From a virus (taxonomy: Duplodnaviria > Heunggongvirae > Uroviricota > Caudoviricetes): a DNA stretch of 15,986 bases. The notes below the pieces were generated by a model. That model ran no database searches and was not told where the DNA came from. It saw nothing but the letters and a program-made list of their open reading frames with translations. A program made the position numbers and the translations under genes. How positions within the stretch are numbered: the first letter of the stretch is position 1; each line of letters begins with the position of its first letter. This document shows positions 7,042 to 14,808 of this stretch, one piece after another. The DNA is taken from IMG/VR virus record IMGVR_UViG_2636415712_000006, one strand, 5' to 3'.

Positions 7042-7240
7042 ATTCTTTGGCATTTTTTACCTCGTTACGCGCGTCTGTGGCTTTGCCAACGGATACTTCC
7101 GCGTGCGCACGAGTGAACCAGTGCGTGGCAACGTCTTCCTCCACAACATGACGGCCTTTAACAAACTCGCGCCGAGAACCGTCGGGAAGCGTGAGCACAA
7201 ACGGGGTATGTACGTGTATTACTGCATCATTTTTTGCCAT
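7042..7240 (-). pseudogene. Phage head-module gene downstream of the capsid-like gene, 3'-truncated by IS600 (first about 66 codons retained)
   Basis: Minus-strand ORF starts at 7240 (MAKNDAVIHVHTPFVLTLPDGSRREFVKGRHVVEEDVATHWF...) with AGGA 7 nt upstream. The frame runs into the IS600 right end at 7041, so the last 15 codons of the tracked ORF 6995..7240 are IS-encoded. Confidence 0.5.
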
Positions 7241-7281
7241 CGGGTCATCCTTAATGGCCCCGCCAGGGGGCCATGTGGCTG

Positions 7282-8223
7282 TTAAATGCCATCAACGTAC
7301 GAAATGGTTTCTTTGTACACTGGCTCAACCGCACCCAGCTTGCCGTAGTAGGTCGCAATCTGATACAGACCGCGATACTGCACCGGCACGCTCTGAAGCG
7401 GAACCAGCGGGTAGCGGACGTATTTTTTATCGTTGGTGTACGCAACCATGCGATCCTTATTCCCCACACCACGGCCTTTCAGCCATTTAACCGCGCGGAT
7501 ATTCAGCGGAACACCGTTCTGGTGATAGCTGATGGTGTTGGTCTGAAGGTTCGTCAACAGGGACTGGTTACCCGCAGATGAAACGATGATGCTGGACAAC
7601 AGAGCAAACTGCTCAGGCGGGATCAGCAAATCACGCGGAACCACAGAGTAACCAGAAGCGGCCCACGCATCAGACAGCACCTGGTTAATGCTTGCGCGGA
7701 TTTCGTCCGGTGTTGAGGTTGCCCACGTTTTGGCAGCGTTGTTGACAGGCACGCCGTCCAGGGTAACAAGGCCTTTCAGGTTTAATGCGGAATCGCCAAC
7801 ATATACCTGTTCATCGTTATCCATCTGCCATTTCAGTTGCATACCGTCATACTTCTGCGTATCAATCGGGCGGCCGACCTGCTGAGCAGCCTGCAATTCT
7901 ATGACCGTCCAGCCAAGTTCCATCCCCCACAGGTTCAGCGGGTTACCGGATTTGCCGATATCCACGTTCACGCCAGCAATAGCGGTTGAGTCTTTGCCTA
8001 CCCAGTTTTTTCCATTCGGATTTGCGCCAGTACCCGCAGCGGCGAAGCTGGTATTCGTCCAGCTGGAAATGTCATCTGCGATGGAGGCGTCTTCACGCAG
8101 TTGAATATCGCGGCTCCAGGTGTACCCCACCAGTGGCAGGTTCAGCGTCTGGTCGAGTCTCTCCAGCTCCCCGATGAGAAAGGCACCAGAGCTGTCAACG
8201 GTTGCCTGATCAAAAGTAATCAT
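7282..8223 (-). CDS. Putative phage major capsid protein (313 aa)
   Basis: 313-aa ORF occupying the capsid position of a terminase-portal-MuF-scaffold-small-protein-capsid module. AGGA 9 nt upstream of the ATG. Functional call rests on size and gene order, not on a verified match. Confidence 0.6.
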   Translation of the reverse strand: MITFDQATVDSSGAFLIGELERLDQTLNLPLVGYTWSRDIQLREDASIADDISSWTNTSFAAAGTGANPNGKNWVGKDSTAIAGVNVDIGKSGNPLNLWGMELGWTVIELQAAQQVGRPIDTQKYDGMQLKWQMDNDEQVYVGDSALNLKGLVTLDGVPVNNAAKTWATSTPDEIRASINQVLSDAWAASGYSVVPRDLLIPPEQFALLSSIIVSSAGNQSLLTNLQTNTISYHQNGVPLNIRAVKWLKGRGVGNKDRMVAYTNDKKYVRYPLVPLQSVPVQYRGLYQIATYYGKLGAVEPVYKETISYVDGI

Positions 8224-8367
8224 TCGTCTGTTCCTTAAATCTTCCAGGAAATTTCTGCATTGCCGTCAGCATCACCGGCACCTGTGAATTCAGCGTTGGT
8301 CAGCACCACGTTTTTGCCACTGACTGACGTGGACATGAATCCACCCAGAGGCACTTTGATGGATTCA

Positions 8368-8724
8368 TCAGTGGAGATCGCCTTTTTTGATAGTGCTGGC
8401 ATCAAAATCAGAACCGAGATTAACGGTCACGTAGCCACGCTTCATGGCGTCGCCCGGGAAGTTCTTGCCTGTTCCCACCTGGCGAACCATGTCCGGCTGC
8501 GACGTGGTCGGATAAGGGCGCACGTAGATCCCCTTCACCTTGTCTGCGGTATCACCATCTGCCAGCGGCACGAAAAAACCGTCATCATCGTATTTACCAG
8601 CCAGGCCATAGGCAGCGAAGGCGTTATCGGATTTAAGGACCACCGGTTCGACGGTTAAGTCCTGCGGGCGAGAGACAGCCCCGGCAATGCCAACAGGCAT
8701 CCGGTACAGAAATACATTATTCAT
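8368..8724 (-). CDS. Small phage head protein (118 aa as read; possibly a longer protein interrupted at an A6 run, see findings)
   Basis: ORF starts 4 nt after the stop of the upstream gene (translational coupling). The +1 frame beyond its stop stays open for 50 more codons, ending 12 nt before the capsid-like start. Confidence 0.6.
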   Translation of the reverse strand: MNNVFLYRMPVGIAGAVSRPQDLTVEPVVLKSDNAFAAYGLAGKYDDDGFFVPLADGDTADKVKGIYVRPYPTTSQPDMVRQVGTGKNFPGDAMKRGYVTVNLGSDFDASTIKKGDLH

Positions 8725-8727
8725 TTT

Positions 8728-12785: not shown

Positions 12786-12796
12786 TGGATTTGCCC

Positions 12797-13702
12797 CTAT
12801 ATTTCCAGACATCTGTTATCACTTAACCCATTACAAGCCCGCTGCCGCAGATATTCCCGTGGCGAGCGATAACCCAGCGCACTATGCGGATGCCATTCGT
12901 TATAATGCTCGAACGCCTCTGCAAGGTTCTTTGCTGCCGTTAACCCGTCTGGTTTGGGCATGATACTGATGTAGTCACGCTTTATCGTTTTCACGAAGCT
13001 CTCTGCTATTCCGTTACTCTCCGGACTCCGCACCGCCGTGTTCTTCGGTTCAAGTCCCAACATCCGGGCGAACTGGCGTGTTTCATTAGCCCGGTAGCAT
13101 GAACCATTATCCGTCAGCCACTCCACTGGAGACGACGGAAGATCGTTGCCGAAGCGGCGTTCCACCGCTCCCAGCATGACGTCCTGTACTGTTTCACTGT
13201 TGAAGCCGCCGGTAGTCACCGCCCAGTGCAGTGCCTCACGATCACAGCAGTCCAGCGCGAACGTGACACGCAGTCTCTCTCCGTTATCACAGCAGAACTC
13301 GAACCCGTCAGAGCACCATCGCTGATTGCTTTCTTTCACGGCCACTCTGCCTGTATGTGCCCGTTTCGATGGCGGTACAGCAGGTTTTCGCTCAAGCAAC
13401 AGCGCATTCTGGCGCATGAGCCGGTAAACACGTTTGGCATTGATCGCAGGCATACCATCAAGTTCTGCCTGTCTGCGAAGCAGCGCCCATACCCGACGAT
13501 AACCATACGTGGGCAGCTCTCCGATAACATGGTGTATACGGAGAAGCACATCCGTATCATCAGTGTGACGACTGCGGCGGCCATCCATCCAGTCATCGGT
13601 TCGTCTGAGAATGACGTGCAACTGCGCACGCGACACCCGGAGACAACGGCTGACTAAGCTTACTCCCCATCCCCGGGCAATAAGGGCGCGTGCGCTATCC
13701 AC
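12797..13702 (-). CDS. insD: IS2 transposase InsD (OrfB, DDE integrase core)
   Basis: 301-aa [37 protein letters not shown]...; matches my memory of IS2 InsD. Confidence 0.9.
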
Positions 13703-14025
13703 TTTTTTGCCCGTCCATATTCAACGGCTTCTTTGAGGAGTTCATTTTCCATCGTTTTCTTGCCGAGCAGGCGCTGGAGTTCTTTAATCTGCTTCATGGC
13801 GGCAGCAAGTTCAGAGGCAGGAACAACCTGTTCTCCGGCGGCCACAGCAGTAAGACTTCCTTCCTGGTATTGCTTACGCCAGAGAAATAACTGGCTGGCT
13901 GCTACACCATGTTGCCGGGCAACGAGGGAGACCGTCATCCCCGGTTCAAAGCTCTGCTGAACAATTGCGATCTTTTCCTGTGTGGTACGCCGTCTGCGTT
14001 TCTCCGGCCCTAAGACATCAATCAT
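13660..14025 (-). CDS. insC: IS2 InsC (OrfA)
   Basis: Start taken at the internal Met giving [40 protein letters not shown]... (121 aa), the canonical InsC. The ORF track extends it 15 codons upstream to 14070. Confidence 0.9.
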
Positions 14026-14116
14026 CTGTTCTCCAATGACTAGTCTAAAAACTAGTATTAAGACTATCACTTAAATAAGTGATACTGGTTGTCTGGAGAT
14101 TCAGGGGGCCAGTCTA

Positions 14117-14121
14117 ATTGC
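14117..14121. repeat. IS2 target-site duplication, right copy (ATTGC)
   Basis: See left copy at 12781-12785. Confidence 0.8.
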
Positions 14122-14808
14122 CGCATCATCATCAGACTCCGGAACGCCCTCATACACATGTTTAAAACCATCCGGATCACGGCGTCGCGCCGCGTCGATA
14201 ACCTTAAGCATGGTGTCAGACAGAAACGGATTTTCGTCATAGTTAATTTTGCGGATGAGAGTGCCTTCGGGCGGATCAACAACGAAGTTGCGCCAGACGA
14301 AATCAGTAACAAGTCCGGGGTTGAATATGAACCAGCATTCCGAACCCTCTTTACGGATCGTTGGCTCCAGAATTTTCCACTGGTATTCCGTCAGTGCGTG
14401 GGCTTCTTCCAGCCACAACATATCGATCCCCTCCAGTGACTTAATTTCTTCGATGTTGCGCCATAATCCATAAAAAACAAATTCCGAGCCAGTAACCCGG
14501 TTAATGATTTTGTTGTTCAGAATACGGAAACGGTGCCGCAGACCAAACCTGTCTATCTGAATTTTGAGCAGGGTATACACCGACTCTTCGATTTTATTCT
14601 GGATCTGACGGGCACAACAAAAACGCAGGGTGTATTTATTCGACAGAAATATGGCAATGCCAGCGGCATCCCATGATTTTGACGATGACCGACCACCATA
14701 AAGCACTTTGTTACGTGCCCGCATAGTCCAGAAACTACGTAAAGCCGGATTCAGCGTCGGTTTGGATGTCAGAGTAGAAGTCATTGAGGTCACGCTCTCC
14801 ATTGCCAT
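14117..14808 (-). pseudogene. Terminase large subunit, N-terminal ATPase portion (upstream of the IS2 insertion)
   Basis: Minus-strand frame reads MAMESVTSMTSTLTSKPTLNPALRSFWTMRARNKVLYGGRSSSKSWDAAGIAIFL... with Walker A-like GGRSSSKS and Walker B-like IDMLWLEEA, then runs into the IS2 end at 14116. The ATG at 14806-14808 directly abuts the IS911 terminus at 14810. Confidence 0.75.

Follow-up and report, generated by a model that had tools for sequence, protein, structure and literature searches.

The 15,986-nt stretch of DNA analysed here, referred to as the window, is a segment of the Shigella flexneri chromosome that carries two dead, unrelated prophage remnants, tail to tail. A Mu-like left end inserted in the host gene dpiA is followed by IS600, a block of head and packaging genes that is interrupted by IS2, and a partial IS911 (Table 1).

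Table 1 Features of the window with their coordinates, strand and supporting evidence. L001 denotes the prophage of E. coli FDAARGOS_944.
Feature	Position	Strand	Evidence
dpiA, 3' part (host; C-terminal HTH domain)	2575..2916	-	PF20714 (E 3e-49)
Mu-like prophage left end (attL, c, ner, A)	2917..5777	+	sequence reading, Pfam, identity to Mu
c repressor	3254-3763	-	PF02316
ner	3917-4171		PF13693 (HTH_35 / Ner)
A transposase	from 4146 (ORF 4146-5780)	+	PF02316, PF09039, PF02914, PF09299
IS600, complete, 1264 bp	5778..7041	+	direct reading; Pfam HTH_Tnp_1 and rve
IS600 orfA	5842-6144	+	
IS600 orfB	6180-6998	+	
STY1053-family small gene, last 7 codons lost, reading on into IS600 (ORF 6995-7240)	7042..7240	-	phrog_6497
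Major capsid protein, intact, 313 aa	7282..8223	-	PF09950 (E 2e-85); phrog_264 (E 9e-97)
Cement / minor capsid protein gene, frameshifted	8235..8724	-	PF23982, PF22758; alignment to L001
DUF2213 protein, intact, 406 aa	8728..9948	-	PF09979 (E 2.5e-41); phrog_1961, phrog_12864, phrog_530
MuF-domain head morphogenesis protein, intact	9952..10734	-	PF04233 (E 1.5e-18); phrog_324
Portal, intact, 488 aa, Phage_portal_3 / DUF1073 type	10586..12052	-	PF06381 (E 3e-106); phrog_146 (E 2e-174)
Terminase large subunit gene, C-terminal part (equivalent of 741 nt)	12052..12785	-	alignment to L001 25028-25768
IS2, complete, 1331 bp, in terminase gene	12786..14116	-	alignment to L001; IS2 matches
Terminase large subunit, N-terminal part, ATPase domain (ORF 14101-14808)	14117..14784	-	PF04466 (E 9e-39); L001 25764-26431
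Small-terminase-like gene, last 75 nt	14735..14809	-	L001 CDS 26382-27146, which matches phrog_370 (terminase small subunit)
IS911, partial, running off the window	14810..15986	-	end sequence TGAAGTGGTCAAC, read directly

Collinearity with the E. coli pagP-dcuC-dpiA region stops at position 2916, because a Mu-like element is inserted there. Its attL begins at 2917 with the terminal sequence TGTATTGATTCACTTGAAGTACG..., which was read directly, and is followed by c, ner and A, the same content as in Mu, D108 and SfMu. Outside the immunity region the segment is 92-98% identical to Mu (91.7% at Mu 1-447 and 97.8% at Mu 1511-2962). It is a genuine Mu left end, inserted in dpiA. The A gene is truncated by IS600 after codon 544 of about 663, its stop codon being the TGA formed by the first three bases of IS600. 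In comparison to Mu, the element is missing the C-terminal ~119 residues of A and everything rightward of it.

The flanking DNA of IS600 derives from two different phages, Mu-like on the left and a SEN34-type head module on the right. The element connects Mu A, at codon 544, with the opening codons of the gene that immediately follows the capsid gene. Window position 7042 corresponds to position 20001 of L001, within CDS 19978-20199 and CDS 19605-20012, and bases 7042-7053 double as the opening 12 nt of the DUF4054 gene that lies downstream. The bases bordering IS600 read TAT at its left end and ATT at its right end, without a 3-bp target duplication. As these flanks come from different phages, IS600 marks a recombinant or deletion junction rather than a simple insertion.

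Between 7042 and 14809, every sizeable phage ORF is encoded on the minus strand and strongly matches a protein family. Since A is encoded on the plus strand, the head genes run towards it, exactly as the original prediction had described. That prediction had delimited the module as 7042-14808, and every phage gene therein is indeed on the minus strand; the interval also holds the complete IS2 that splits the terminase gene, and the phage DNA ends at 14809, with IS911 following directly. From the proposed gene list, the terminase, portal, MuF-like and capsid genes were recovered, while the "small protein" turned out to be the frameshifted cement gene and the gene in the head protease/scaffold position encodes a DUF2213 protein. 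The MuF-domain gene and the 3' end of the portal gene overlap; translation from the annotated start of the former, equivalent to position 10695, yields a protein of 247 aa. The tight coupling of the genes could be reproduced to the base: a TGATG stop/start overlap is present at 12054-12050 on the minus strand, and TAA-ccc-ATG and TAA-aaa-ATG arrangements have their spacers at 9951-9949 and 8727-8725. Both spacers measure 3 nt and lie where the original prediction placed them.

Despite four intact genes, the head block is dead. Alignment to L001 revealed a 17-nt deletion at 8375/8376 of the cement gene, splitting it into ORFs 8368-8724 and 8235-8405, and a 7-nt deletion at 12335/12336 of the terminase gene, where the loss of one copy of a CAGCCAC repeat shifts the frame. 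The terminase gene is in addition broken by IS2, which is flanked by a 5-bp target duplication, ATTGC, at 12781-12785 and 14117-14121, and whose target site is unbroken in L001. IS2 is thus a clean, simple insertion, unlike IS600. Both ends of the block are cut, by IS600 on one side and by IS911 on the other. At the latter end the alignment to L001 stops at 14809, and the rest of the small-terminase-like gene has been removed or displaced by IS911, which matches the copy of this element in phage Sf6 with 100% identity.

The closest relative of the head block is a prophage of the invasive E. coli FDAARGOS_944, with 99.2% identity across two segments of 5.7 kb and 0.7 kb. This prophage lies between ybhA and pgl and encodes an integrase, Cro/CI, holin/lysozyme and a contractile tail. 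Identity amounts to 95% for phage vB_EcoM-689R2 and to 82% for Salmonella phage SEN34, which has been described as a lambda-related myovirus (PMC5261728). Together with Escherichia phages vB_EcoM-611R5, -683R1 and -606R2, these phages form a SEN34 type that shares with the window the gene order terS-terL-portal-MuF-DUF2213-cement-capsid-STY1053-DUF4054 and the same Pfam and PHROG families. Apart from IS2 and the two small deletions, the block is collinear with the sequenced members. Judged by these sequence relationships, the source phage is classified as a SEN34-type temperate myovirus, predicted to have combined lambda-like integrase, regulation and lysis genes and a PBSX-type terminase with an E217/Pam3-type head and a contractile tail. 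Of a phage of roughly 40 kb, the window retains only about 6.4 kb. It lacks the lambda-type integrase, the regulatory genes, the lysis genes and the contractile tail (DUF3383 sheath) that intact relatives possess (PMC5261728), whereas other S. flexneri strains keep terS, DedA and part of Rz. Near-identical modules occur in complete prophages and in sequenced phages, so it is reasonable to assume that this one once worked. A rare S. flexneri contig (L020) carries a separate, intact SEN34-like prophage, which is not a reciprocal product of the junction.

The late genes of Mu all run in the same direction as A and B, as the original prediction correctly stated. Here the head genes lie on the other strand from A, with IS600 in between, and one of them bears a Pfam domain named after Mu F, an arrangement that had been read as an inverted late segment of one Mu-like prophage. 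To assess this reading, the head proteins were compared with Mu gp27-gp37 by blastp, which gave no match better than E = 0.2, and tblastx and blastn searches of 7042-14808 against the whole Mu genome returned no match at E <= 1e-3. Profile searches likewise assigned the portal, capsid, protease/scaffold and small terminase of the two phages to different families, and none of the Mu families PF06074, PF10123, PF10124 and PF11985 (portal, protease, capsid and small terminase) was matched in the head block. The portal matches PF06381 and not PF06074 (Portal_Mu), the family of Mu gp29 (E 1e-95); its best blastp hit among gp27-gp37 has E = 4.1, with no alignment to gp29. The capsid protein belongs to PF09950 and Mu T to PF10124, the DUF2213 protein to PF09979 and Mu I to PF10123, and neither of the two window proteins aligned to Mu proteins at better than E 0.7. 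The large terminase is of the Terminase_3, PBSX-type family PF04466, whereas Mu gp27 matches PF11985 and Mu gp28 has no Pfam match (E = 5.2 in blastp against the window's terminase).

The MuF domain, PF04233, is the sole feature that the head block has in common with Mu (gp30; direct blastp E = 0.85), and no relationship to the Mu late genes was detectable beyond it. The MuF domain is widespread in non-Mu phages, for example in the SPP1 gp7 family, and therefore does not discriminate a Mu-like head module. Intact prophages and phages, among them the integrase-type lambdoid prophage that is 99.2% identical to the block, carry this head module in its native, non-Mu context. We consequently reject the head block as a Mu late region, and the chance that a single Mu-like prophage with an inverted segment underlies the locus is negligible. 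The other option offered originally, a fusion of two prophages through IS600, is supported by the data, with a left end 92-98% identical to Mu and a right side matching an integrase-carrying lambda-type prophage.

Copies of IS600 are numerous in Shigella genomes (PMC7373316), and such repeats can misjoin short-read assemblies. A chimeric join across IS600 is nonetheless hardly credible here, as the junction was seen in 14 independently retrieved loci, mostly multi-megabase records. These 14 are all the S. flexneri loci retrieved across the junction, and in each of them the truncated A gene, IS600 and the head genes aligned unbroken at 99.5-99.9%. Protein look-ups, which covered exact sequences over a sample of contigs, placed the truncated A, the terminase fragment, the STY1053-IS600 fusion ORF and the cement fragment each on 461 to over 1000 contigs; for the junction-spanning ORF 6995-7240 the number is 461. 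These products are named as proteins of S. flexneri 301, 2457T, 2002017 and 2003036. Among 5,426 complete E. coli genomes, the dpiA::Mu-IS600-head arrangement was not found in any, and the genomes matched by the Mu part are not those matched by the head part. IS911 occurs at 14810 in only one (L006) of the 14 loci and is thus confined to a sub-lineage. In strains L018 and L019 the remnant is bounded on its other side by an IS911 adjoining ybdM, and in L016 and L017 a prophage piece comprising holin', tRNAs and DUF1133 is inverted. Since the IS911 positions differ between strains, the neighbourhood has been rearranged more than once.

We consider the window, with a probability of about 0.9, to be a composite in which a truncated Mu-like prophage and an unrelated SEN34-type head remnant were joined via IS600, most likely by deletion and without any inversion. 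The identity of the two parts, the exact junctions, the lesions and the distribution of the arrangement in S. flexneri were established directly, and the deletion and the order of events are inferred. A Mu-like phage transposed into dpiA, and attL, c, ner and the first 544 codons of A are all that remains of it; a SEN34-type temperate myovirus contributed the other part, leaving only its packaging and head genes. The junction may have arisen by recombination of two directly oriented IS600 copies or by an adjacent deletion caused by one copy. Such a deletion would have taken out the tail genes of the myovirus, the 5' half of dpiA along with whatever host DNA lay in between, and ~34 kb from the right-hand side of the Mu-like prophage. 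That the head genes and A run in opposite directions would then reflect the chance orientation of two independent prophages. Later decay would have brought IS2 and the 7-nt deletion into the terminase gene, the 17-nt deletion into the cement gene and, in a sub-lineage, the IS911 event in the small-terminase gene.

Alternatively, IS600 could have driven an inversion or a translocation, or a succession of IS events could have joined the remnants. In that case the tail genes would survive elsewhere in the chromosome beside another IS600, as would the 5' half of dpiA and the right part of Mu. The position of the closest intact prophage points in this direction: it lies at ybhA/pgl, far from dpiA, at a distance of about 145 kb on the K-12 map. 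If the ancestral prophage occupied this site in S. flexneri as well, a single deletion or inversion would be insufficient and more than one rearrangement would be needed. The variable IS911 junctions and the inverted holin'-tRNAs-DUF1133 piece are also consistent with such a history, and IS-mediated rearrangements are well known in Shigella chromosomes (PMC7373316). However, the expected reciprocal products did not emerge from look-ups of exact protein sequences over a sample of contigs. An exact match to the tail sheath protein of the nearest relative was found in ten places, all of which keep the tail joined to its own head module, and none of which is among the S. flexneri accessions found earlier. 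For the missing N-terminal 113 aa of DpiA, no abundant truncated fragment was found of the kind expected from a retained 5' half. The sole match of that type, of 117 aa, was discarded, as it comes from a dpiA gene with a frameshift that sits in an ordinary E. coli locus lacking Mu. Moreover, judging by the gene orientations, one inversion with endpoints at an IS600 in A and at another in a prophage at the ybhA site would be expected to bring the 3' part of A next to the head genes, while it is the 5' part that is observed there. On this negative evidence, an IS600-mediated deletion most likely made the junction, and the alternative of an inversion, a translocation or several IS events is unlikely, though it deserves some weight.

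Among the S. flexneri loci, the intact head genes differ by 0-2 substitutions each, except for a patch at 7327-7357 of the capsid gene. This patch is specific to the window and bears the alleles of the intact related prophage L020, showing that sequence exchange between the remnant and phages of this kind continues. The intact capsid, DUF2213, MuF-domain and portal genes might in principle be under selection across S. flexneri, either as a domesticated capsid-forming unit or as parts borrowed by a co-resident SEN34-like phage or satellite; we regard this as very improbable.

The locus represents ordinary genome decay that is already annotated. In Shigella, IS1, IS2, IS4, IS600 and IS911 have multiplied and give rise to deletions and rearrangements (PMC7373316). 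Three of these five types (IS600, IS2 and IS911) bound or interrupt the head block, and target duplications are missing at junctions that join two different sequences (PMC7373316). The window is one specific instance, with no difference in kind. Its importance beyond annotation is small. It does teach that a Pfam name such as "Mu F" beside a real Mu transposase can falsely imply one rearranged Mu prophage. It further gives the exact breakpoints of an IS600 junction that is fixed in S. flexneri and of an IS911 junction that is polymorphic there, both of which could serve as lineage markers, and adds one more example of prophage decay driven by IS elements.

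Features of the window, mapped by listing ORFs, scanning against Pfam and searching with the DNA, are collected in the table. Collinearity with ordinary E. coli stops at base 2916, and at 2916/2917 the response-regulator gene dpiA is interrupted by a Mu-like element. The left part of the window belongs to the Mu family, with identities to Mu of 91.7% for attL and 97.8% for the transposase gene A, which is cut to 544 codons compared to 663 in Mu. The immunity region (3363-3943; c, operators and part of ner) has nothing in Mu that matches it closely at the DNA level. Of the matches that cover this region, the best was to a Mu-like prophage in E. 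coli UMNF18 (91.9% across 90% of the query 2700-5900).

Features of the window from the host flank to the head genes and IS2
Feature	Position	Strand	Remarks
pagP	1-585	minus	
dcuC	1047-2534	plus	
dpiA, 3' part	2575-2916	minus	
Phage Mu left end (attL), TGTATTGATTCACTTGAAGTACG	starts 2917		sequence read
Mu-type c repressor	3254-3763	minus	
ner	3917-4171		
A transposase	from 4146		all four Mu transposase Pfam domains present
IS600, complete, 1264 bp	5778-7041		gives A its TGA stop
Major capsid protein			PF09950, E 2e-85
Cement/minor capsid protein			PF23982 and PF22758
DUF2213 protein			strong family match
MuF-domain head morphogenesis protein			PF04233, E 1.5e-18
Portal			PF06381, E 3e-106
Large terminase			PF04466
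IS2, whole	12786-14116		5-bp duplication ATTGC; splits terminase gene

All substantial phage ORFs between 7042 and 14809 lie on the minus strand. The ORF listing and the family matches thus bore out the original prediction of minus-strand head genes at 7042-14808, and the coupling signals were located exactly where it had placed them (TGATG at 12054-12050, 3-nt spacers at 9951-9949 and 8727-8725). The predicted interval is real, but phage DNA reaches 14809, where IS911 takes over. Likewise, the gene described as encoding a small protein exists as an ORF, but is actually the cement-protein gene, in which a 17-nt deletion at 8375/8376 has shifted the frame. RefSeq record NZ_CP148474.1 labels the homologue of window 10586-12052 "anti-CBASS protein Acb1 family protein"; other records label this DUF1073-type homologue DUF1073 or portal protein, and the Acb1 label on a portal homologue is probably an annotation quirk.

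The head genes had been regarded as Mu-like. Each head protein was compared by blastp with gp27 to gp37 from the Mu genome, replacing broken window copies by the intact homologue of the nearest relative, and the best E-value was 0.2. Searches of 7042-14808 against the whole Mu genome by tblastx and blastn gave no matches at 1e-3, and the Mu families Phage_Mu_Gp27, Portal_Mu, Mu-like_Pro and Mu-like_gpT had no match among the head proteins of the window in Pfam. The MuF domain is the sole family common to the head block and Mu, and it is one that occurs widely in phages other than Mu-like ones. With no significant protein or DNA similarity and differing Pfam families, it was wrong to frame the head genes as Mu-like.

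Instead, 7042-12785 and 14117-14809 are 99.2% identical to and collinear with 20001-26456 of L001, the locus containing the prophage of "E. coli" FDAARGOS_944. This prophage possesses its own integrase and excisionase, a Cro/CI switch, and lambda-type replication and nin-like genes. Its lysis genes are holin, lysozyme and Rz. Small and large terminase genes precede the same head module as in the window, and the tail, contractile and with a DUF3383 sheath, has its end adjacent to ipaH. Within L001, the T3SS effector gene ipaHb (2578-4404) lies beside tail-fibre genes, and a DedA-family gene in opposite orientation (27341-27853), which looks like cargo, sits between the lysis and terminase genes. 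Four sequenced Escherichia phages, those of the vB_EcoM-689R2 group, furthermore match the head block at 95% identity, and Salmonella phage SEN34 matches it at 82%. SEN34 has been described as lambda-related with myovirus morphology, and as prototype of a new lambda cluster (PMC5261728). The head genes of all these relatives are co-directional with the lysis and tail genes of the same genome. The right part of the window is a SEN34-type lambdoid myovirus member, not of the Mu family, and contains no inversion inside the head block. The proposed inversion of a Mu segment was mistaken.

IS600 is flanked by TAT and ATT, which are not a target duplication and derive from two different phages; it thus marks a recombination or deletion junction, unlike IS2, which is a clean insertion. 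On the myovirus side, the breakpoint falls 12 nt inside the DUF4054 gene, which directly follows the capsid and small STY1053 genes, and the genes from there through the tail fibres are missing. The truncated A and cement proteins, the TerL N-terminal fragment and the junction ORF 6995-7240 each occur as exact matches on 461 to >1000 contigs, with S. flexneri 2a 301, 2457T, 2002017 and 2003036 as source names. In addition, 14 retrieved loci that span the junction align without a break over truncated A, IS600 and head block at 99.5-99.9%. Hence the junction is genuine, old and, in the S. flexneri lineage, essentially fixed; an assembly artefact is ruled out by these loci, most of which lie on multi-megabase records. 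A second IS600 copy, which has lost 25 bp internally compared to window 6542-6566, adjoins the holin fragment in several strains (L014-L017; e.g., L016 4048-5284). The alternative of a composite, also raised in the original prediction, was right: a Mu family member on the left and a SEN34-type phage on the right are joined at IS600, and we put the probability of an origin from two phages at 0.9 or higher.

Intact genes in the block are those for capsid, DUF2213, MuF-domain and portal proteins, which are nearly invariant across S. flexneri loci, in keeping with a recent relic. Damage to the terminase gene is threefold, and its C-terminal part is frameshifted by a 7-nt deletion at 12335/12336. 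Because the terminase and cement genes are broken and tail, lysis and regulatory genes are absent from the window, the block is unable to make a phage. FDAARGOS_943 also carries IS2 in this terminase gene (L003 ~17984-19314), as an independent insertion at a different site corresponding to window ~14336. At the 3' end of the capsid gene, six substitutions in 31 nt (7327-7357) and one at 7573 are window-specific: neither the FDAARGOS_944 prophage nor any of 13 other S. flexneri loci has them. In 7327-7357 the alleles match exactly those of an intact SEN34-like prophage that a rare S. flexneri contig (L020) carries, and the pattern resembles a short tract of gene conversion by a related phage.

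Among the loci compared, IS911 at 14810 was present in the window and CP026772.1 only. In other strains the remnant extends via a small-terminase-like gene and the DedA gene into Rz, where IS911 is found, so that the IS911 site varies between the small-terminase gene (window) and Rz (L014-L019 ~7000-8250). Its far side is ybdM in L018 and L019 and an inverted piece of truncated holin, tRNA and DUF1133 in L016 and L017. L014 and L018 contain a group II intron reverse transcriptase gene inside the IS911 sequence.

The junction was probably made by an IS600-mediated deletion, which would have occurred between two convergently oriented prophages. A search for the reciprocal product using the exact sheath protein of the relative found the tail joined to its own head module in 10 of 10 places; none of the sheath-carrying records was among the S. 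flexneri accessions. One rare S. flexneri contig carries a separate, intact related prophage. Querying the protein database with the 113 missing N-terminal DpiA residues returned no abundant truncated fragment, whereas the C-terminal fragment is called as a gene in most loci. As no N-terminal fragment of the expected size was found there, S. flexneri seems to have lost the 5' half of dpiA. That neither search gave a reciprocal product is negative evidence, which favours deletion over inversion. Inversion, translocation or several steps are a less likely origin. A multi-step history may nevertheless apply, as the prophage of the nearest relative sits at ybhA/pgl, far from dpiA, and IS911 has clearly reshuffled the neighbourhood. 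In Shigella, expansion of IS1, IS2, IS4, IS600 and IS911 is well documented to have caused deletions and rearrangements (PMC7373316). The join is a standard IS junction. Reference S. flexneri genomes already have annotations for all the pieces, and the process behind these is well known.
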